Assembly (NCBI GenBank): GCA_951406725.2
Contig: OX597814.1
Span: forward strand, 88,536,001-88,600,000
From: Octopus vulgaris
Taxonomy: Eukaryota
Direction: 5' to 3'
Length of the DNA: 64,000 nt
The notes beneath the pieces were generated by a model that was given only the letters and a program-made list of their open reading frames with translations, did not search any database and was not told the origin of the DNA. This document shows positions 1 through 58,878 of the stretch, piece after piece (within the stretch, counting starts at the first letter, position 1; each line of letters opens with the position of its first letter). A program made the translations under genes and the position numbers.

Positions 1-961
1 CGCCATTCGTGTCGAAACTGTTCATCAAGAACGCTATCTAGTTAGTCTATCACGTCTTCTTACTCAACTCCATTGTTTTTCCCCTTCTCAATTTCTCTCT
101 ATGTATGTATGTATGTATGTATGTATGTATGTATGTTAAATATACATGAATATATGTGTGTGTATGTATACACACACATGCATACACATATTTATATATA
201 AAAAAGGAGTAAAAGTTGAAATGTGTCGAAAATTGCTTACACACACACACACACACAAATATATATATATATATCACAAGTTTGACTTTTTAACAGTAGA
301 GGAGAATAATATAATTGTATGCATTTATATGTATAAACTATAAAAATATAACGATACGTTTTCACAGAATAAATGTTTTCGTATCGTTGATCAACTGAAA
401 TTATATTTGTATACGTATTCTTAAGCTGAGTTTGGCATAAATAATTTATTTAAAAATTAATATAAAGAAAAGTGAGAAGGATGGAATGGAACAAGGCAAA
501 ATGAAGAATCACTGGTTGCTTCGAGTGTTTTGTATAGAAAAAGATTTTAATAATTTTAAAGTTTTGCTGGGTCCGGTTTCCCTGAGTTTAATTTGAAAGT
601 TTTATGCATTTTTCCATATTTTTTCTTATTTAAAACCGGCCAGTAGAAGGTACCGTCAATTTGCATAGTCGCCCGGGACGTCACATGTTAGGGGAAGTCA
701 CATTATGTGTTGGGATCTTTTAAATAAAAAGGGACAATGGGAAAATAATAAACTAATGTGCGCAAATGTTGATCCGTGGCTGTAGCAGAAGATACTTGCC
801 CAACGTCCTGCGCTGTGAAACTGAACAACCTGAATAAATGAGAGTGAGAGAGAGGGGAGAGGAGGAGAGGGGGAGGAAGAGAGAGGGAAAGAGATGGAGG
901 GGGAGAGAGAAACAGACAGATTGATAGACAGAGAGAAACAGAGATAGGGATAGATAGATGG

Positions 962-3516: not shown

Positions 3517-4374
3517 TATGACTGTGCATGATTGATGTTTTTTTTTTTTTAAAGCCTGTATTTTTTAGCCATTTGTTGTTTGGCTAATATTAGATACGGT
3601 CGGATTGGATTGCAACGTGAGAGAATACACTTCTTTTTGGGATTGCATTAATTATGATTTATAAATATCAGCTCCAGGAAGTATTTTAGGCATGTTCATA
3701 GGCTATTTCTCGATCCTGTTTACTGAATAAGATTATCGTCACGTTTTATTGGTTCGTAGCAATTTTACGTCATTCAAAATATAATTTGCTTAAAGAGTTG
3801 TTAGAGAAGATTTAATAAACAGTCGTTACGGAAGCAACATTTCATAGTTCTTAGCATACAGAACATCATTGCGGAAGCTTTATTTTTTAATTCTTCGTTG
3901 ATCCTAGTTAATAATTTCAAAAGCTATTTCTGAGAAATTGCTTTAGAATACTATAAATAGCATTTTCTGTTGTTGTTCAGCCCTAATTCAGCTACACTTC
4001 AATAGAAAGTGTTTCACCACTCGTAGTATATATTTGAGTCATTTCAGTAAATGTAACCTCTTTTTTTCTTTCTTTTTCTTTCTCTCTTTCTTTTCTGTAT
4101 TTCTTTTTCTTTCTTTTTCTGTCTTTCTTTTTCTTTCTTTATTTCTTTCTTTCTTTTCCTTTCTTTCTTTCTTTCTTTCTTTCTTTGTCTGTCTGTTTGT
4201 CTCCTCCCTCTCCCTTTTCTCTTTACCCCGCCTCACTAACATAGTACAGTATGATTTGGGCACGATTTGAAATCGATATTATTATATGCAGACATTACTG
4301 TATGCTTCACAACCACGCAGTTTGGGGTTCAGTTTCACTGTATGACACCTTGGGCAAGTGTGTGTGTATCAATA

Positions 4375-7300
4375 TATATGATGATTGGTTTATCTTGACA
4401 GATGATAGCCATCCCATCAACACACAATCACTCCATGAATGAACCCTCAGGTGACTTTTAAGACCAATTGCTGACTGATTGGGTTTAAAACACAAGTAAC
4501 AGATATTCAAGCTTCTTCTATATTTTTGCCCTTTGGAATCTGATTCCGAAGGAATGTTTTTGTGAACTAGCATATGTCTTTCAAGTCCAGATATTGTCTT
4601 ACAAGTTTTGTGACATATGACACAAGTCATAAAAGGCGATTGTTGTTCAAGATTATTAACTACCCGGGCATTTTGATTTTCATGTGACTTCATATGATTC
4701 ACATAACCTGCTTTTGACAACCGAACAGGATCACACATAATACATTTCCAATGTTCACTGTTGGTTTCAGTCCCAATTGTTCCTTTGCGACAGGCCCTTT
4801 TAAGCTCGGACTGCTGAATCGTCTTTTCCTCCTAGGTATTGTAACCAGTCCTAAAAGCACCTCTCCACTTGTTCCGATCTAGAACATCAATTTTCCAATC
4901 ACTTTTGTTCATATCTTGTTTCTTCAGGTTTTCCTTCACACAGTCTTTATACTTTTTTCTCGGCTTATGTTGTGGTCGCTTACCAGAGTTGAGCTCACTA
5001 TACAAAAGATGCTTTGGTAATCGCTCATATTACATTCTGATAACATGCCCAGCCCATCTCATTTGAGCCAAGATAATATGTTGTTCAATCTACAACGTGC
5101 GATGCACAAAACTTCTGTATCTGGTATGAAACATTCCCACTTGACTCCCAAGATACGTCTGAGGCACTTTTGATGAAATCTCTCCAATAAAGAAGTGCAG
5201 TCAATACACACGTTTTAAAGACACTGGTTTTTGCCTGCAGGGAAATACTTTTATCCGCCTATACTCGCTTTTCGAGCTTTCCAAATGCAACACTGCCCTT
5301 CCTTTTTCGATTGTATATCTCTGCACCAAGACCACCAGGGTCCTTCCGAGGTAAACAAAGGTATCAATGACTTCTAACCTTTTTCCATTCACAAAAATGT
5401 TTGGTTCTGAATATGTTTGTCCTGGCGTGGGAGTACATATTACTTTTGCTTTCCCCAAACTAATTGTGAGTCCGAAATGTACACATACAGTGGAAAGTCT
5501 GTCCATTAAGTGTTGCATATCCCCCAACAAATCAGCATCATCAGCATAAAATAATTCTCTAACAAGTATTTTGAAAGTCTTTGCTTTGCAATTAAGTCGG
5601 ATCAGATTAAAAATACGACCTGATGTCCGAAATCTGATTCCAATTCCCCTATTGCAATCCTTGAAAGCATACCAAAACAATGCAGCAAAATATATAGAGA
5701 AAAGTATAGGCGCAGGAATATTTCCCTGGTTGACACTGTTGTCCACCGAAAATTCATGAGATAGCTCACCATTAAAGACTGCCTGAACTTTCATGTTTTT
5801 GTGTAGTTCCTTAAAGATGCTCACAAAATGTGTTGGGCAACCAAGTTTGCATAAAGCAATCCACATTGCCTCCCTGTTTACCGTATCAAATGCCTTAATT
5901 AAATCTATGAAAACCCGGTAGAGTGGTATTTGTTCCTCTAAGCCACAATATCCCAACCTTTTCTGCCTCGAGGCACCCTTGCCAAGCCTTTTAGAAATCC
6001 ACGGCACTCCTATTAGAAAATCTAATATGACAGTTGTTTTTTTTATTCAACATCAATATAACAAAGCCTTGTCCTTGGATAATAACATCTGCGTAAGAAA
6101 ACTATGTTCCTGGAATTGATAATAAAATGTTCTTCATTTCACCAATGTTGATATAATAGGCATAAAATAGATGATAATGCAAAAATTTAATAGACAACAA
6201 TACAAAGTATAAGATGACAATAGTATTTATTGTTAAAATAGTATCAAAATGCATTTTTGACATTAAATGATCAATCATGATACCACATACGTATGTATAT
6301 TTCGCGGCACCCCTCGGTTGATCTCATGGTACCCCAGGGTGCCGCGACACACCGGTTGGAAACCTGTGCTCTAAGCATTTCTCCCGAACCTGCTTCGTGG
6401 AAAATATCAGGTCCATTGTTCCTTGCTCAGGTCTGAAACCACACGGTTCTTCAAGAATCACATGTGGACACACATTCTCAACGAGATGATCTAACATGAT
6501 ACTTGAAAGTATCTTCCCGGTATGTGCTAGGAGAGTTATCCCTCTAGAATTACCACACACTGGTTTTGGGCCCTTACCCTTGTATACAGAGATTAGAATG
6601 CCGTTTAAACTATAAAAACTTTTAATGTCTTCCCTGTCATAGGCCGTCTGAACTTCGTCAGACAAATTTCTCCACCAAGTGTCTTTAAGCCTCCTGAGTT
6701 CCTTTTGCAAGTCTGATTTCTGAGACTTGTACAACTTTTCGAGTTGCACTTTGTTCTTTATGTTTGGGTCAAGAAGCTTTTCATGAATGGAACTATTTGT
6801 TGCTATAAGCTTATTTATCCCCTTATCATTGGGATCAAACCAGTCTCGGTGCTGTCTCCTCTTAAACCCTAACACCTCTGATCCCATTTTATATATTCCA
6901 TCCCCAAAAGATTGCCATGAACCATCAGAGTGAACGTTGCTGCATCTCTCCTGAAATAACTGCAAAACTTGTGATTATTTTAGTTGCTCTACATAAATTT
7001 TCTTTCGTACTCGTACACCTTCACAACGAATCTTCTTGCGGACCATGAACTTGAACTTTTAGCCCTAACCAGTTTGTGATCAGTATCTCAATCAGTACTT
7101 CGTAATAGCCCGAGACTGCACAAATCTTGTAATTCAGCTTTCCGAGTTAATACAAAGTCAATCATGTGACCTTGCTTTGATCTTAGGTGAATCCAAGTAG
7201 CTTTATGCTTCAACTTATGATGAAGGAAAGTATTCCCAACAACTATCCCTAGCTCACAGCACATTTGTAGCAGACGCAACCCATTGTTGTTCACCTTTCC

Positions 7301-7870
7301 CATTCCGTAACGCCCAAGTACATTCCAAGCACCATAGGTTCTACCAACACGTGCATTAAAGTCACCAAACCCAACCAACTTCTCATTCAAAGAGACTAAC
7401 AGAATACTTCTTTTAAACTCCTCATACAATGCATGGATATTTTTCTCACTAGTTGAAAGTGTAAGAGCATAGAGAAAACAGTTACAAAACGTCTACAAGA
7501 CAGAAGAATCCGGAGTTTCATTATGCGTTTGTTTATGCTTTGTCAAATTTGAATTCTAAGTCTTTTACCAAATCACTTCTTATTGAAAACCCAACACCAC
7601 CTTCCTTTTTTCTCCCTTCGGCTTCCCAACCCCAAATGATGTGAAACCTGCTACTTTTTCAACAAGATGATCTTTATCTGAACATCTTGCTTCAGAAAGA
7701 GCTGCAATATCAACATTAAGACGTCTTAGCTCCTTAGTTACAAGAGCCGCCCTTCTTTCAGGCCTATCTGTTCGATCTAAAAGGGTTCTCACATTCCAAC
7801 AAGCTAGGTTAAAAGAAACCTTATTCCTCGCATACTTGTTATCATTGTTTATATTAATTCTTTGCTCATT
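4375..7870 (-). mobile_element. Degenerate RTE (BovB-like) LINE: AP endonuclease, reverse transcriptase and three C-terminal C2H2 fingers
   Basis: APE motifs WNVRTL, DIAALSE, GDFNARVG and HMIDFVL. RT motifs RGITLL, GFRP, FIDLIKAFDTV, QGNIPAP.LF, YADD and FVYLG. Many stops and frameshifts plus an internal deletion. The 5' UTR may extend to ~8580. Confidence 0.93.
5944..6368. mobile_element. hAT MITE inserted in the RT of the RTE LINE
   Basis: Perfect 8-bp TSD CTCTAAGC (5936-5943, 6369-6376). TIRs CACAATATCCCAACC / GGTTGGAAACCTGTG match at 11/15. Removing the insert restores the frame REKCLEEQIPLY. Confidence 0.9.
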
Positions 7871-8885
7871 CCTGCTAAATTGAACCACCGTTAATCTCAG
7901 TAAACTAACCAACGGAGAAAAGACACAAATTTTAGTGCCACTTTCTAGCACATTCCCAGTATATATACATGTGAGTACTTTTCTCCTTAAAAGGGCTGCT
8001 CAAACAGGATTCTCCACCGAAAACAGCTCCTGTCCATGAAAACATGTTAGCGATATTAAGATAAGACCCCTGCCGCCTTATGTGCAGCTTTGTAACTGTA
8101 TGCTTCCAACCGGTCAAGTCTGCATACGTCACCACGCCTCTATCGCCATGGGACTTTTGAAAATAGATCATTGTACGATGATGGTGTTTTGTCGGGGACA
8201 TCAGTACTTCATTGGATTTCAATGATAAACGATTGTACAACACTTTTGCCACGCTCTGGGTCAAAATAGTAGATTCTAGTGACAAGCAAAGCAAGATGAC
8301 TAGTACTAAGTTGACTGTAGGTTTTATATCGGAGTATCTGCTCTTAGGCTTTTCCTCAAAAAGAGACTGCAAGCCATCAGTGGTAAATCAATTTGAATTC
8401 TCTCCTATACTGGTTGTCCTAATCACAGCTGCGTTTCAAAACAGGAGCCAAATCTGCTCCCATCAAACAGTCATGGCTTTGATAGGGCAGCCAATTAAGG
8501 GGACGTAATTACTATAACCAGGTTTTATGTCATAGTGTCCTTCTAGAAGAGTTGACTTCACCACGGCTAACGAGCCTCATCTACGCCAAACACACACAGA
8601 AACAATATATACATATGTACAAATACACACACACACACACATCTTTCAAGAATGTAATTGCGTAAAGCCAGAACAATGCGAGAAAGTACAAAGTAAACTA
8701 CAAAAGGAAAAGAAAACAGACGAAGTCTGAATTTTACCTTGTATTTCCATATTTCGGGGTGAGAAGTACAAGGTAAAACTTCAACTTTGTTCTGTTTTCT
8801 TTTCCTTTTGTAATTTTTTTTACTTTGTACTACACAACTACATTCTTTAATGTTGTACCTCACAATGTCTCACCAAAACTATCTC

Positions 8886-27113: not shown

Positions 27114-27585
27114 ACATACTGGTGTACACAAATAGATTCATGCAAAGAATTATGCTGCACGCACACACACACGCACACGCAGATATACACGCACACTCAT
27201 GCACACACACATACATCCACGTATATATCTGTGTATATATGTATAATTTACATATATTACCCTTTTTGTATATATGTGTATATATACATATATGTGTGCG
27301 TATGCATGTGTGTGTATGAGTGTGTGTATGTGAGTGTGTGTGTGTATGCATGTGTACATACTGGTATACACAAATAGATTCATGCAAAGAATTAGGCTGC
27401 GCACACACACACGCACACACAGATATACACTCACACTCATGCACACACACATACATCCACGTATATATCTGTGTATATATGTATAATTTACATATATTAT
27501 TCTTTTTGTATATATGTGTATATATACATATATGTGTGCGTATGCATGTGTGTGTATGTGAGTGTGTGTGTGTATGCATGTATAC
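27114..27585. repeat. Tandem duplication of a ~240-bp low-complexity unit
   Basis: The anchor CATACTGGT.TACACAAATAGATTCATGCAAAGAATTA occurs at ~27115 and ~27357. Confidence 0.9.
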
Positions 27586-31233: not shown

Positions 31234-31489
31234 AATTTAGAGTACCTGCGGAATGATGTAAAACGTAAGGCAGATATGGTTTTATAAATTTGTGTTTCAA
31301 TCAGGAAGTTGATTGGTACACAAGTTAACGGAAAACTGAAGGGTGGCATAAACTCTAGCTTCGCTAGTGAATGACAAGACCTAAGAGAGGAGTTGCCTTA
31401 AAGACAGCCCGGAGTTAAGAACAGCAGAGAAAATTCATCGATGGCCTATTCTCCGTAGGGAGAGAAGGGATTAGGTAAATAAATAATCC

Positions 31490-31884
31490 TTTCTATTAAA
31501 GACACAAGGCCTGAAATTTGGTGGGAGGGGACTAGTTGATTACATCAACTCTAGTGTTTCACTGGTACTTAATTTATCGACCCCGAATAGATGAAAGGCA
31601 AAGTCGACCTCGGCGGCAATTAAATTCAGAACGTAGCGGCAGACGAAATACCTATTTCTTTACTACCCACAAGGGGCTAAACACAGAGAGGACAAACAAG
31701 GACAGACAAACGTATTAAGTCGATTATATCGACCCCAGTGCGTAACTGGTACTTAATTTATCGACCCCGAAAGGATGAAAGGCAAAGTCGACCTCGGCGG
31801 AATTTGAACTCAGAACGTAACGGCAGACGAAATACCGCTAAGCATTTCGCCCGGCGTGCTAACGTTTCTGCCAGCTCGTCGCCT
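31490..31884 (-). mobile_element. SINE family B dimer: young unit joined to an older-tailed unit
   Basis: Junction GAAATAC|CTATTTC at 31651/31652, with a single head at the right end. Confidence 0.9.
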
Positions 31885-32321
31885 TATAAGTAAGTAAATA
31901 ATGAACGCATGTATATAATAATATATGTTTGTGTGCGTATGAGTGTGTGTGATGGGTTTCTGTAGAGATTCCGTTTCCCAAATTCACTCACAGAGTATTG
32001 AATGGCTGAACGAGGCGACAGGAAAAGATATTTAATCATATGTCCCCCAGTGGGTTTAACCCGAAACCGAATAGTTGTGAAGCGAACTTCTGTATCACAC
32101 TGTCATGCTTTTTCATACTGATGAATATAAAAAGTTAATTATTTCCGATTGGTTATAAAAATGCAATTTTAATGCATCAAATTCAACGCATGTACTATCT
32201 GGTAACGCTATCAATCCCTCGTGACCTGGGTTTAGCTCCGTAATTCATTCGGGCTTGGACGTAGCAGCTATTTTGTCCTCTTTCAATGTCATTCATTGAA
32301 GAGTAAGAAGTGAGCACGCGA

Positions 32322-32541
32322 AGGCGTCGAGCTGGCAGAAACGTTAGCACGCCGGGCGAAATGCTTAGCGGTATTTCGTCTGCCATTACGTTCTGAATTC
32401 GAATTCCGCCGAGGTCGACTTTGCTTCGAGGTCGATTAGATAAGTACCAGTTACGCACTGGAGTTGATGTAATCGACTGAATCCGTTTGTCTGTCCTTGT
32501 TTGTCACCTCTATGTTTAGCCCCTTGAGGGCAATAAAGAAA
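32322..32541 (+). mobile_element. SINE family B young-tail monomer
   Basis: 18-bp TSD TAAGAAGTG(A/C)GCACGCGA at 32304-32321 and 32542-32559. Confidence 0.9.
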
Positions 32542-34155
32542 TAAGAAGTGCGCACGCGAGTTATATGGCATGTGGTTGGTTGCTTCTAATGATTATTCTA
32601 ATACCAAGAAACATATTTCGTACCAGAATATAGCATAACAATAATGAATGTGTGTGTGTGTATGTGTGTGTGTTTACGTCTGTATGTATAAATATATACA
32701 TATGTAAATATTATTTTCGCTGTCAAAATATCGTTTTACTTATTGTTCCAGAGTGATAAAGCATTTCGTAAGAACGTATGTATATGTTATAGACCTATGT
32801 GTGTGCGTGTGTTTGTGTGTATGTGTGTGTGTGTTTCTGTTGTATTCGTGTGTGCGTGTGTGCGCACGCGTGCGCGCATGCGTGTAGGATTCCAACTGCA
32901 TTTGGCAATAAGCACTGGATAGAATAGAGGAGCATTGTTATTAGTGCTTGTTGCTTTACGTTAGACTTGGTGCATTATCCTCCACTAAAGTACACACCAC
33001 ATATATACGTAATAAGATGCTATCTCTCTAAACATGTGAATAGTATTTCAACATTTGTCTTATTTGAATTAAGGCGTTAAACTCGATAGGCAAAATCCTG
33101 TATTTGTTAGCAATGCTATCTCACATGTCTGACCTAAGGGGAAAAGAATAATAGTCAGACAATAAGAAAACAATTGATTTCATTTCCGCCCTTCAGCCCC
33201 GCAGTACTTAAAACTGCTGAAAGGAAGAGGCATTGTAAAGAAATCCGTTTGTACTGCAGTGGCTTTCTATTTTTTTTAATTATGATACCCTTTAGTTATT
33301 TAATCATCAAACAGTACTTGTATTTTTCTATGCTGTTCAAATACATGCCATTGACTACTTTTGAGTCATTTCTCCTAGTTCATTACTTAAATTATGCAAA
33401 ATACCAAGGTCATAAATATGCTCTACATAGGTTGGACAGCTATTATACTGATGACGCCTAATCCATGACTCCTCTTCCCTTCAGAGAATAAGTCTTCATA
33501 GCATGACAACACTGGAGAAAATCTTGAGATCATCTCCCCCTTTTCATATGGAGCTGATTTTAATTGTTATTTGGTAGTTATGGGGTGGAAATAATTTCAA
33601 TAAATCAAGAATTTATATCGTTTAATACTTGACATACTTGTTGTTAACCTGGCAGAATCGTTAGCGCGTCGAACAAAATACTTAACGACATTTCTACCGG
33701 TTCTTTATGTCCAGAGCTCAAATTCCGCCGAGGTCAACTTTGCCTTTCATCCTTTCGTATTCGATAGAATAAAGTACCCACCAATTACTGGGGTCGATGT
33801 AATCACCTTGCCCCTCCCCTCAAAATTGCTGGCCTTATGCCAAAATTAGAATAAGATGCCTCGTTGTTAGGTGTTGCAATCACGATCACAAGATTGGGTG
33901 GTGCGTTGTGTTCTTGAACAAAACACTTTATCTCGCGTTGCACTGCGATCACTCGACACCTGGCATATCGTACACAGTACACCTGTTCAGACAATGTTTA
34001 TTTAATGGAGAGAGTGAGCTAATATAGTACATACATTTGATTCCTATAAATAAATCATTTATGCAAGTCATTCGGAAAAAGCTGAACACTCATACGTCAT
34101 CTTCGGCGGGAGAGAGTCCATTACTATTATTATTATTGTTGTTATTGTTGTTGTT

Positions 34156-36285: not shown

Positions 36286-36379
36286 TATAATATCAGTTAC
36301 TGACACGAGAAGGTCATATACTGTAGGTAGAGGAGAATTGCTCTCAATATATTACTAGTATTATTCTGCTTCATCGGTG

Positions 36380-36858
36380 ACAGGAAATGATGAAAGGCAC
36401 AGTTGATCTCAGGGGGATTTGAAATCCGAACGCAAAACGAGGGGCATAACTAAATACCTATTTCTTTATTGCCCACATGGGGCTAAACACAGAGAGGACA
36501 AACAAGGACAGACAAACGGATTAAGTCGATTACATTGACCCCCGAAAGGATGAAAGGCAAAGTCGACCTCGGCGGAATTTGAACTCAGAACGTAACGACA
36601 GAGGAAATACCTATTTCTTTACTACCTACAAGGGGCTAAACACAGAGAGGACAAACAAGGACAGACAAACGGATTAAGTCGATTACATCGACCCCAGTGC
36701 GTAACTGGTACTTAATTTATCGACCCCGAAAGGATGAAAGGCAAAGTCGACCTCGGCAGAATTTGAACTCAGAACGTAACGGCGATGAAGCAGAATAATA
36801 ACTGGTACTTATTTAATCGACCCCGAAAAGATGAAAGGCAAAGTCAACCTCGGCGAGT
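36380..36858 (-). mobile_element. SINE family B concatemer
   Basis: Junctions at 36457/36458 and 36610/36611. One unit is internally deleted. Confidence 0.85.
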
Positions 36859-44146: not shown

Positions 44147-44950
44147 CACTTTGACCGACCAGTCCGTCAGGCGTCCATTTGACACCGCTGGTCACAGCAC
44201 GCTGTCCACTCCTCTCTGGAACGCGCCTTTCTCATCCACGTGATCCCAATCGTCCTCTTGAAATCGTCACTCCACCGTCGTGGAGGTCTTCCGGGTGGTC
44301 TTTTCCGCTCACGCGGGTACCACTCGACAACTGCGTGCGTCCACCGATTATCGGTGAGCCGGGCGACGTGTCCAGCCCATCTATACTTGCTGCGAGTATA
44401 CTCTGCGATGACATCTCTCACGCCGGACTTCTTTCTGATGATCTTGCTATTTATGTGCTCTCTCAACGAGATACCAAGCATTGACCTTTCCATGGCTCTT
44501 TGAGCCGTTATCAGTCTTTGCTCTTCTCTCTTTGTGGTAGCCCATGTTTCACTACCATATAACATTGCAGGCAGAACTGCACTGTTAATGAGGTTAGCGC
44601 GGGTGGTCCTGTCCAACCTTCCCTTGAGCACATCCCTTATGCCATTGAACGCCTTCCATCCGGCCCTTACTCTCCGTGAGATCTCCTTTTTGATATCCCG
44701 GCACATATTTACTTTCTATCCCAGGTAGACATATTCTCTCACCTCCTCTATTTCATCACTGCCGATCACCATTCGACCTGTTGGTACGTTGTCTGACCGC
44801 ATGAACTTTGTTTTCATGCGGTTCATCTTGAGACCTACTGCAGAACTTTTGATGTCGAGCTCCGTCAGCATGGTCTGAAGCCGATCCATGTTTTCAGCGA
44901 TGAGTACGATGTCGTCAGCGAAACGGAGGTGAGTGAGGAGCTCGCCATTG
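44147..44950 (-). mobile_element. 5'-truncated, relatively young RTE-clade LINE (RT C-terminal half)
   Basis: NGELLTHLRFADDIVLI...GLKMN..KTK...YVYLG*...VLPAMLYGSETW...WAGHVAR..DNRW...GRPPRRWSD. Only one in-frame stop (~44716), and GC-richer than its flanks. Confidence 0.93.
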
Positions 44951-48101: not shown

Positions 48102-48669
48102 TCCTTCCTTCCTTCTTTCCTTCCTGCTCTCTCTCTCTCTCTCTCCCTCTCTGTGAGTATATTTCTCTTTATGTGTATGAGGAGGGGGAGAATATTTATG
48201 TCAATCGTGTTCATTTAATAAATTTTAATGTTTCTCTCTTCTCCTCACTCTCTCTCACTCACTCTTTGTATCTGTATGCTTATATTTCTTAGCGATCGTT
48301 CAGGTATGAATGTGTGTTTGCCTCCAGCGCCAAAAGGTACCATCGCCCAGACCGGCTGAATGTTCAGCTAACTGTGGTGAATCGTCAGCACCCAAACAGT
48401 TTTGCACAATCGTTTTATTCCTTCTCTGACAGGTATATCAACCTCTAGTAGAAGAGAGAAAATTTCTTGTAATACAAGAACAGCGAAACTGAAACATGGG
48501 AGATGAAGATTTATACTAAAAATTTAAATAAACATGATATATATGATAATAACGTGAACATTGACCTCACAATTTGACATACATCCCAGGAAAATAGCTC
48601 TACTATTTATGACAGACGTAACACATGTTACACAGCACATGCTATATAATCATAAAACAAGATTAACTC

Positions 48670-49408
48670 TAAAATATCGATTTCAAATTTTGGCGATTAC
48701 AACAACCCCAGTGCGTAACTGGTACTTATTTTATCGACTCTGAAAGGATGTAAGGCAAAGTCGACCTCTAAGGAATTTTAACTCAGAATATAAAGTCAGA
48801 AGAAATACCTATTTCTTTACTACCCACAAGGGGCTAAACACAGAGGGGGCAAACAAGGACAGATAAAGGGATTAAGTCGATTATATCGACCCCAGTGCGT
48901 AACTGGTACTTATTTTATCGACTCCGAAAGGATGAAAGGCAAAGTCGACCTCGGCGGAATTTGAACTCAGAACGTAGCGGCAGACGAAATGCCTATTTCT
49001 TTACTACTCATAAGGAGCTAAACATAGAGGGGACAAACTAGGACAGACAAACGGATTAAGTCGATTAGATCGACCCCAGGGCGTAAGTGATACTTAATTC
49101 ATCAACCCCGAAAAGATGAAAGGCAAAGTCGACCTCGGCAGAAATTAAATCCAGAACGTAGCGGCAGACGAAATACCTATTTCTTTACTACCCACAAGGG
49201 TCTAAACACAGAGAGGACAAACAAGGACAGACAAACAGATTAAGTCGATTATATCGACCCCAGTGCGTAACTGGTACTTATTTAATCGACTCCGAAAGGA
49301 TGAAAGGCAAAGTCGACCTCGGCGGAATTTGGACTCAGAACGTAGCGGCAGACGAAATACCGCTAGGCATTTCGCCCGGCGTGCAAACGTTTCTGCCAGC
49401 TCGCCGCC
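48670..49408 (-). mobile_element. SINE family B tetramer with an exact 184-bp period
   Basis: Junctions at 48808, 48992 and 49176 and the head boundary at 49360. Confidence 0.92.
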
Positions 49409-50657
49409 TTCAGAATAACTCTAAACAATCACAAAAAATAAACCCCGTAATACAGCAAATTAGAAGTAAATCCTACATCTGTAAAATACTTCACTTATCT
49501 CGGGAACATAGAGCTGCAACCTTTCTCTTTCAGAGGTCGTTAACACGCAATACTTTCGCTACTTCTATGAACAAAGACGTTGAAATTATCTATCAATAGA
49601 AATGAGAACTTAAATAGCTTCCAGGAATAGAAAGGAGACGATCGTTATTCATATCAAGGACATTATTATATCGTATTTGCATTACACGAAAAAAACAATA
49701 CACAATCAAAGTTTTTATTAATGCTTTCTCACGCCAAGCAAATAAACATAAAACAGTCGAAGATGTTTCTAATGACCAATGTTCTTGTTTTCAGGGTTTG
49801 AAATTTATCCAGCACTGGTCAGTTTCTGACACTTCACAAAGCTGAAGTGCGGCTGGTACTGCTGATAAAATACACACACACACACACCCTCCTAAACTGC
49901 AGCAAGAATTAAATCCATTTGATGAACATAGATTCAGTAACCAAAATAGATGGCAACTGACAAACTCAGAATATTTGGCAGCTTTCATTGTGATTCTCGG
50001 CGCTCTGAGTTCAAATCTTATCGAGGTCAAGTTTGCCTTCCAATCCATTAGGGTCGGTAAAGACAGTAACAATCTAGTACTATGATCGATTTCTCTGTTT
50101 GGCTGTCTGTCTGTCTGTCTCTCTTTCATCCATTTCCCTCTTCTCTCTCTCTCTCGATTTCCCCCTCTCTCTCTCTCATTCTCTAGAATAATATTTAAAT
50201 GCTTCAGACTTCCATCGTAGGTACACGACGATGCCCCAAGACAGAGTAACTCATCTTGAACGCTATAAACACCCTTCTGCGTCCATTCTGCCTCTTCTAT
50301 AAGTATTTCTCTGAATTTACAAGCTGAATACCACCGGCACCATATTCATCCGCTCCATCGTTTCTCCCCCCTTTTCGTCGTCATCTCTACGGCGTTTCAA
50401 TCAATCCTAAAACCGGCGGCACTAAACACTCTACTCAAACATTGCTTTCTAGATCTTGAATGCTCTCTCCAGGCCCACGTTGCTTTTGAAGACGTGAAAT
50501 CAAACAACAATCCAACTCACCAACCTAAGTAAATAAATAAAAGAAATAAAAGAAAGGAAGAAAAAAGAAAGAAAGAAGGAAAGAAAGAGAGAAAGAAAGA
50601 AAGAAAAGGAAAGAAAGAAAACTTCTCGATTCAATTGTGCTTCAATTCATCTTGTAG

Positions 50658-51535: not shown

Positions 51536-51611
51536 AATAGTAGAGACTCTGATACAGAAACTAGACGGAATAGTGACGTTGGAACGCCATGATTATTGTT
51601 CTCTCGGCTGA

Positions 51612-52715
51612 AGGCAGCGAGCCGGCAGAATCCTTAGCACATCACAGAAAATGCTTAGTGGCATTTCGTCTGTCTTTACACCCTGAATCCAAATTCCGCC
51701 GAGCTCAACTTTGTTTTTTATCCTTTCGGAGTCGATAAAATAAGGACCATTTGCGCACTGGTGTTGGCGTGTTCGACCATTCCCCACCCCTCAAAATTTC
51801 AGACTTTGTGCCTATAGTAGAAAGCGTTATTAAGGTGACAAGCTGGCAGAATCGTTAGCACACCAGGCGAAAAGCGTAGCAGTATTTCGTCCGTCTTTAC
51901 GCGCTGAGTTCAAATTCCACCGAGTTCGATTTTGCCGTTCATCCTTTCGGGGGAGGGGGGATTCGATAAATTAAGTACCAGTTGAGTACTGGGATCGATG
52001 TAATCGACTATCCTCCTCCCTCAAATTTCAGGTCTTGTGCCTTTGTAGAAAGGATTATTATTAAGGCGGCGTGCTGGCAGAAACGTTAGCACGCCGGGTG
52101 AAATGCTTAGTGGTATTTCGTCTGCCGCTACGTTCTGAGTTCAAATTCCCCTTGTGGGCAGTAAAGAAATAGGTATTTCGACTGTCTTTACGTCCTGAGT
52201 TCGACTTTGCCTTTCATCCTTTCGGGGAGGATATATTACGTATCAGTTGAATACTGGGGTAGATGTAATCGAATATCCCCTTCCTTACAAGTTCCAGGCC
52301 TTATGCCTATAGTAGAAAGGATTCCGGGCAAAATGCTTAGCTGTATTTCGTCTGTCTTCTCGTTCTGAGTTCAAATTCCGCCGAAGTCGACTTTGCCTTT
52401 CATCCTTTCGGTTGAACACAGAGGTCGATCTAATCGATTTAGCCCCTTTCTTGCTGGCCTTGTGCCAAAATTTGAAATCATCATTCTTATTATTCTTATT
52501 CCTCTTATTATTATCGAGGTGGCGGACCGGCAGAATTGTTAGCACGCCGGACAAAATGCTTAGCGATATTTCGCCCGTCTTTACACTCCAAGTTAAAGCG
52601 CCGCTGAGGTCTCTACTTCGTCTTTCATCCTTTCTGGGTCGGTGAAATAAGTACCAGTCGATGCACTCGGCTGTTCCTCTTCCCCAAAATTTCAAGCCTT
52701 ATGCCTACAGAAAGT
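51612..52715 (+). mobile_element. Cluster of about six co-oriented SINE family B copies
   Basis: Repeated head and core motifs, including the precise junction AAATAG|GTATTTCG at 52172/52173. Confidence 0.88.
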
Positions 52716-58710: not shown

Positions 58711-58713
<3 letters not shown>

Positions 58714-58875
58714 ACGCTCTGAGTTCAAATTCCGCCGAGGTCGACTTTGCCTTTCATCCTTTCGGGGTCGATAAATTAAGTACCAGTTACGCACTGGGGT
58801 CGATATAATCGACTTAATCCCTTTGTCTGTCCTTGTTTGTCCCTTCTGTGTCTAGCTCTTTGTGGGTTGTAAAGA

Positions 58876-58878
<3 letters not shown>
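58711..58878 (+). mobile_element. 5'-truncated young SINE family B within (TA)n
   Basis: Core and young tail present, flanked on both sides by (TA)n. Confidence 0.88.

Follow-up and report, generated by a model that had tools for sequence, protein, structure and literature searches.

The window analysed here is a 64,000-nucleotide stretch of Octopus vulgaris DNA (GenBank assembly GCA_951406725.2, contig OX597814.1, positions 88,536,001 to 88,600,000 of the forward strand), and its subject is a short interspersed nuclear element (SINE) family whose copies are joined into short tandem arrays at four loci. SINE copies in the window were found with BLAST, the tandem period was measured with Tandem Repeats Finder (TRF), and element positions are numbered from window coordinate 31885 on the minus strand. 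Three tail types are distinguished, of which A is young and B and C are older. As expected of a SINE, the 234-nt monomer gave 32 BLAST matches in 64 kb, was aligned by 708,496 contigs of the public run X4, and is accompanied by target-site duplications (TSDs) at three loci (17/18, 13/14 and 14/16 matching positions). A tRNA-derived SINE is expected to have a tRNA-related head (at least 60% identity to a tRNA) with A and B boxes for RNA polymerase III (Pol III). Box-like motifs presumably lie at about positions 13-23 and 77-87, as judged against the general consensus, and ARAGORN and Rfam (at the gathering score) each gave no match to the element. The family may resemble the octopus SINEs OR1 and OR2. 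OR1 and OR2 have been named as tRNA-derived SINEs of octopus (PMC4824008, PMC4758252). A shared central domain characterises OR1 and OR2 (CORE) as well as MetaSINE.

The arrays are tandem young-SINE units fixed by one junction to the interior of older related copies. Nine A tails are present in the window, and seven of them run directly into G(T/C)ATTT at SINE position 50/51. Exact matches to the junction motif were located on the minus strand at 31646-60, 36452-66, 36605-19, 48803-17, 48987-49001 and 49171-85, and on the plus strand at 52164-78, seven in total. When up to two mismatches were allowed, 11 matches were obtained against 0.67 expected, and none of 100 shuffles reached 11. The two A tails without the junction belong to a monomer (32322-32541) and to a 5'-truncated copy within (TA)n (58713-58877). 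For the array at 48.7-49.4 kb, TRF reported a period of 184, 3.6 copies and 87% matches; this array is composed of a head (positions 1-50), three 51-234 units with an A tail, and an older fourth unit with a C tail, and one TSD (13/14) encloses all of it. Arrays in the window contain two to four units. One head is found at each of three loci and none at 36.4-36.9 kb, and the last units of the four loci differ: two carry B tails that are unlike each other, one has a C tail, and the fourth is a copy with about 37% divergence.

Several claims of an earlier note on this DNA, made from its letters alone, were thereby borne out, namely seven junctions in four loci (all seven are exact matches at the places it named), at most one head per array, and an older or differently tailed last unit. 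Its placement of the junction at the loop edge of a hairpin in the head also agrees with the folding result, in which 13 pairs form in the head hairpin (z of -2.64 and -2.89), with the junction at its 3' loop edge. The period of exactly 184 bp that it reported is correct for the array at 48.7-49.4 kb but not at 36457-36610, where the spacing is 153 bp owing to an internal deletion, nor for the unit at 52063, which has lost 124 nt. The G preceding GTATTT is head base G50, and the statement that the repeated unit reads GT...AG is thus valid for one of two registers and is not unique. The normal monomer at 32322 with its 18-bp TSD was found as described (17/18), and its tail ends in AAAGAAA at that TSD. 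At 36457 the junction letters are unchanged and the partner is 7 nt out of register (27 bases versus 20 to the same landmark). Coordinates are collected in Table 1.

Table 1. Positions of array components and related SINE copies in the window. Unit differences are counted against the window A majority.
Feature	Position	Strand	Remarks
SINE head, positions 1-50, young type	49361..49410	-	3/50 differences from A majority; contains a putative A-box-like motif
Head hairpin, SINE 33-62	49349..49378	-	junction at 3' loop edge; z -2.89
Unit 1, A tail, 184 bp	49177..49360	-	7 differences
Unit 2, A tail, 184 bp	48993..49176	-	19 differences; T4 run 49111-49114
Unit 2, positions 51-113			same five changes as in the second unit at 31.6 kb
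Unit 3, A tail, 184 bp	48809..48992	-	8 differences; G120A, T130A as in units 1 and 4
Unit 4, older C-tailed partner	48674..48808	-	old type from 58; A-type patch ~120-150; C tail shortened
Array TSD, upstream copy	49412..49425	-	13/14 match
Array TSD, downstream copy	48660..48673	-	
Head + A unit, 31.6 kb locus	31652..31885	-	1 difference/234 from A majority
Post-junction unit, 31.6 kb locus	31488..31651	-	donor-like to 113, old B type from 142, B tail
TSD of 31.6 kb dimer, decayed	31887..31902 (upstream), 31472-31487 (partner copy)	-	14/16
Headless locus: body fragment, A unit, internally deleted A unit, very old partner	36359..36855	-	
Head + A unit with 124-nt internal deletion	52063..52172	+	tail hairpin and junction retained
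Old B-tailed partner	52173..52324	+	old type from 63
Ordinary A monomer	32322..32541	+	TSD 32304-32321 and 32542-32559, 17/18
5'-truncated A copy in (TA)n tract	58713..58877	+	no junction
Tail hairpin, example	31665..31677	-	4-bp stem, CTTGT loop; common to A, B and C tails

Further features were noted at two of these loci. At the headless locus, an 18-nt inverted copy of 36359-36376, which belongs to the old partner, is located at the 5' join of the young unit (36783-36800), and this suggests local templated repair at insertion. The 124-nt deletion in the 52063-52172 unit falls at a CC microhomology. Six SINE copies are clustered at 51611-52710 (plus strand), among which full-length B, B and A copies follow one another tail to head through (ATT)n ends, and this ordinary tail-to-head tandem (51611-52172) directly adjoins an internal junction.

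The junction was followed beyond the window by mapping public runs, 4 of 24 (X4, X15, X22 and X23), onto the 31.6 kb monomer plus 40 bases beyond the junction. X4 and X15 are contig sets, and X15 is only guessed to be RNA; the raw-read runs X22 and X23 contributed only 15 and 241 reads from 1,934 million letters each and, not being deep samples of this genome, were excluded from share estimates. In X4, depth was 66M on the tail plateau, 54M nine bases from the tail end and, one base beyond that end, 35M. Immediately after the tail it was 51-54% of the plateau in X4 and X15, compared with 18% at eight bases within the head end, which has unique flanks. From these values a two-class calculation gives a rough estimate of 70-89% for the share of A tails genome-wide that end in the junction, with the limits that summed contig depth is not copy number and that contigs of the body alone may raise the figure. 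Almost no variation is seen in the first base beyond the tail (0.5% C in X4). Joints between SINE parts numbered 939 in all, of which 15 were listed and are classified here. Seven of the 15 return to a point 173-181 bases earlier (125 X4 contigs and 30 X15 contigs) and are read as the same junction with a next unit that differs at 63-66 as in older families. A smaller class leads from the tail to a full head (joints to 31653; 39 contigs in X4, 9 in X15), and a rare joint from 31885 to 31822, in which head positions 1-64 are followed by a second full head (4 contigs in X4, 2 in X15), would be compatible with insertion of a full-length copy and duplication of 14-16 nt at the junction site. Three of the five remaining listed joints are skips, and the other two are back-joints (64 and 105 bases). 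The earlier note had named two findings that would speak against it, a single dimeric master with the same downstream unit at every locus and heterogeneous junction positions genome-wide; the partners differ, and the junction class has the most contigs among the 15 listed joints of 939. The feature is apparently genome-wide. Its commonest continuation in X15 is the plain consensus (243 contigs), and a single master bearing the second-unit variant seen at 31.6 kb was discarded as the main source (run contigs, loose end at 31626).

In X23 reads, a variant junction that forms a perfect 14-bp palindrome was present in 59 of 91, together with tail-only tandems of ~79 and ~70 nt, which may be minisatellites of another animal that arose from the 184-nt unit. 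A viral contig collection gave no match, and one metagenome and 20 prokaryote loci that did match were dropped as chance, being alike over only 19-25 bases.

The tails bear on how the junction is made. Across 18 tails, 67 of 72 cells of the tail hairpin are paired and three of its four pairs change on both sides between families, and on this covariation the hairpin would be a common recognition signal for a long interspersed nuclear element (LINE). The argument is placed on covariation because single tail hairpins were not significant against shuffles (z -1.55 to 0.33). The whole read-through RNA folds no better than shuffles (z -0.97), the fold of the junction palindrome is not significant (z -0.46), and the tail hairpin is absent from the window's two RTE-like LINE remnants, no LINE end within the window bearing it. 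At 49014 and 23946, one copy each has a double change that leaves a stem pair intact, hinting at further active subfamilies. The junction letters begin 12-13 nt after the tail stem, where the (ATT)n repeats of B and C tails begin, and none of seven B and C tails scanned carried the junction, in a scan that was incomplete and recovered five of the nine A tails. At 31.6 kb, where the youngest head and unit lie, the T runs reach a length of 3 at most, and read-through is therefore expected. In human cells 42% of B2 transcripts end at TATTT (PMC8466645), and by analogy some RNAs of the octopus family might end just past the junction at the same letters.

The point at which a post-junction unit changes to its partner's type varies, since partner-type bases start no later than 57, 62 and 56 at three junctions and only beyond 113 at another two, the remaining two of the seven being uninformative. 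Both late switchers have T66C, G77A, C80T, A83T and C113T, and nothing after 113, in common. From 27 aligned copies less five very diverged or partial ones (231 pairs), the probability of such sharing was 0.001 for that pair and 0.0045 for any of 15 post-junction pairs; C113T creates T4 in one of the two. Heads are of the young type in all three arrays that have one, and 7 of 9 aligned old heads have T at position 21. At 31.6 kb a TSD matching at 14 of 16 positions surrounds a unit matching at 233 of 234, a mismatch in decay with p of 0.03-0.06. Units of the array at 48.7-49.4 kb are 87.5-95.1% alike (differences 5-12.5%), and unit 2 has 19 changes versus 7 and 8 in its neighbours (p=0.0075). 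G120A and T130A, common to units 1, 3 and 4, are a sign of local exchange. A monomers are located at unrelated sites (2 of 9 A tails), and the family is thus not confined to a single target site of the R1, R2 or SART type.

The most likely mechanism, held at about even probability, is that a read-through RNA carrying the junction pairs with a nicked SINE copy and primes reverse transcription there, so that arrays grow in place. Pol III would read past the A tail into the next unit, giving an RNA with the tail, GGUAUUU and further letters, in which GGUAUUU would occupy the place of (AUU)n in B and C tails. A putative LINE reverse transcriptase would bind the tail hairpin and start where the downstream RNA pairs with a nicked DNA end. 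Matches of 2 nt would yield ordinary monomers, and the best genomic match would be position 50 onward of any SINE copy, whose nicked bottom strand would then be the pairing partner of the RNA beyond the hairpin. The cDNA would copy junction, tail and body and re-anneal to the target's own upstream body or head, by which one 184-nt period would be added and the head replaced, with the old TSD kept; such re-annealing would explain why there is a single head, why the junction is fixed, why the switch point varies and why the TSD is old. Every product would in turn serve as donor and as target, and the arrays would afterwards be edited by local gene conversion or unequal exchange. Taken as a whole, the family may be a self-homing SINE, in which read-through RNA guides insertion into any family member with neither a sequence-specific nuclease nor a new TSD, the junction is passed on through RNA, old copies are re-headed, this is the main route of spread, and SINE-derived satellites are seeded; this wider reading is held tentatively, at slightly below even probability.

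The precision of the junction more likely derives from the RNA than from a site-specific nuclease, because the tail hairpin is shared among families, the junction letters stand in the (ATT)n place, monomers lie at unrelated sites, five changes that end at a T-run are shared by two post-junction units, and one junction is out of register. Of the homing proposal made in the earlier note, homology-guided 5' joining into existing copies is retained, as it fits the four partners, the single heads and the outer TSDs; the site-specific loop nuclease is less supported than a junction carried by RNA, given also that the change to partner sequence has no single fixed place.

Several observations weigh against the RNA-guided reading. 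The genome-wide share depends on summed contig depth, and the RNA end, the partner LINE and an empty-site allele were none of them observed. The pair with shared changes was spotted post hoc, and P is 0.31 for any of the 231 pairs; the T4 that C113T creates is no longer present in the 31.6 kb copy. The same TATTT stands at 52-56 of every copy, so that it is no strict terminator. Unit 3 lies behind the older unit 2, and the changes common to units 1, 3 and 4 require DNA-level exchange or a multimeric RNA. Three of five informative switches are within 12 nt of the junction (p ~0.01 versus uniform spread), which fits a loop nick as well; this clustering favours a start close to the hairpin or a loop nick, and the window does not separate the two.

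Foremost among the alternatives, though unlikely, is nicking of the hairpin loop edge that is specific for sequence or structure, carried out by the partner LINE's endonuclease or by cruciform cutting, which would set the 3' junction while a tail ending in TA(G) is joined there and the 5' end is joined by homology; it is compatible with RNA annealing. The coincidence of junction and loop edge and the nearness of those three switches favour it, the minor joint of head 1-64 to a new head would fit a 50/51 nick with a 14-16 nt TSD, and O. vulgaris has recently active Dong-R4, L1-Tx1 and R2 elements (PMC13282606). Against it stand the A monomers at unrelated sites, the two long donor-like tracts, the out-of-register junction, and the presence of the hairpin in B and C tails that nevertheless lacked the junction in the incomplete scan (0/7).

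Rather unlikely as the source of the pattern is the spread of one ancestral junction as DNA, with ectopic gene conversion or synthesis-dependent annealing acting between arrays and single SINE copies and unequal exchange in addition, although DNA-level exchange probably acts locally in any case. The changes common to units 1, 3 and 4, the A-type patch in unit 4, the tail-only tandems in X23 reads and the precedent of satellites in squamates (PMC10702118) agree with such spread, and its products would resemble RNA-templated ones. Switches crowded so close to the junction, however, leave little flanking homology (p ~0.01), and most tails of this retrotransposing family seem to run into the junction, as judged from the monomer with its TSD and from depth.

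Movement of composites as whole units, from several dimeric sources or through a reverse-transcriptase template switch from old B or C RNA to read-through A RNA, would place head, A unit and partner together at fresh sites, and we regard this as improbable. A TSD does enclose the entire array at two loci, all three heads are young, and two second units have five changes in common; but the four partners are different and have private decay, the changes that the two B partners have in common are family-level ones only, the TSD at 31.6 kb has decayed further than the young unit it surrounds (p 0.03-0.06), and the top X15 continuation is the plain consensus rather than one master's variant.

A 184-nt RNA circle, formed by loop cleavage and ligation or by GT...AG splicing and then reverse transcribed in rolling fashion as the earlier note had also suggested, would explain the exact 184 period and a cut at the loop edge, but it is very improbable, given units of unequal divergence that are only 87.5-95.1% alike (p=0.0075), the presence of heads and old last units, a GT...AG that is one of two registers with three other AGs between the pyrimidine tract and the final AG, and no Rfam family, ribozymes included, at the gathering score. 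Retrozyme-like circular-RNA retroelements combine a self-cleaving ribozyme with near-identical rolling units. An intron or back-splice reading was also rejected.

In architecture, the arrays are closest to the SINE-derived satellites (sSat) of squamates, in which many loci carry tandem repeats of one fixed SINE part and a longer last unit extends to a SINE end, some units comprise the central and 3' part (sSat3Gja1), and many loci are short (PMC10702118); a fixed SINE portion in tandem with an extended terminal unit is likewise what the window arrays have. Homogenised long arrays with a subtelomeric bias are a further sSat trait, while the window arrays, of two to four units, show signs of local exchange only. 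Unlike sSat, the octopus arrays have both SINE ends and last units from different older subfamilies, and their junction seems to follow most tails of a young family. The sSat paper invokes unequal recombination, and a term search of its main text returned no 'TSD' and no 'reverse transcri' (PMC10702118).

The chemistry proposed here is similar to that of R1Bm, SART1Bm and R2, with RNA-target annealing, upstream pairing of the cDNA and junction variants borne by RNA (PMC7265360, PMC3774820). For SART1Bm and R1Bm, RNA with target-like sequence anneals to the nicked strand (PMC7265360); for R2, junction variants propagate through RNA and the cDNA heteroduplex gives precise 5' joins (PMC3774820). 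These elements differ in being autonomous, with their own targeting endonuclease and with ribosomal DNA or telomere targets (PMC7265360, PMC3774820), whereas the octopus SINE is non-coding, inserts at unrelated sites too and targets its own family. Head-to-tail multimers of B2 and Dip show that SINE-on-SINE tandems can be very common, involving nearly half of Dip copies (PMC8466645), but these multimers and Alu-type dimers are full-length tail-to-head joins or have one fixed partner. The octopus arrays have instead an internal, headless join to varied partners, and four loci have four last units where an Alu-like dimer would have one fixed second monomer. Zepp LINEs also accumulate inside their own copies in nested clusters, but they are autonomous and kilobases long, with one cluster per chromosome and no dispersed short arrays with one fixed internal junction in the account given (PMC3446292). 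A literature search, which left subscription papers and supplements mostly outside, yielded no report of such octopus arrays or of SINE homing into the interior of its own family, and an sSat-like architecture combined with annealing of the R1/R2/SART1 kind was not met in it either.

Elsewhere in the window, broken RTE-like LINE remnants are present at 4307-8387 and ~44167-44922, both on the minus strand, the former with reverse-transcriptase, weak endonuclease and C2H2 finger matches. For a LINE fragment in the window, the match of highest identity among 62 was to a protein of Octopus bimaculoides (65% identity across 40% of the query), which is in keeping with an octopod host. A 240-bp tandem duplication (1.9 copies, 94% alike) that is rich in microsatellites lies at 27114-27572.

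If the RNA-guided reading is true, the SINE would have gained a safe-haven target through the letters after its tail, with protein specificity unchanged, and retargeting of a LINE-mobilised RNA would need only new letters after the recognition hairpin. Heads, bodies and tails would be swapped directly and on a large scale between SINE subfamilies. It would also provide a testable path from SINEs to dispersed SINE-derived satellites.
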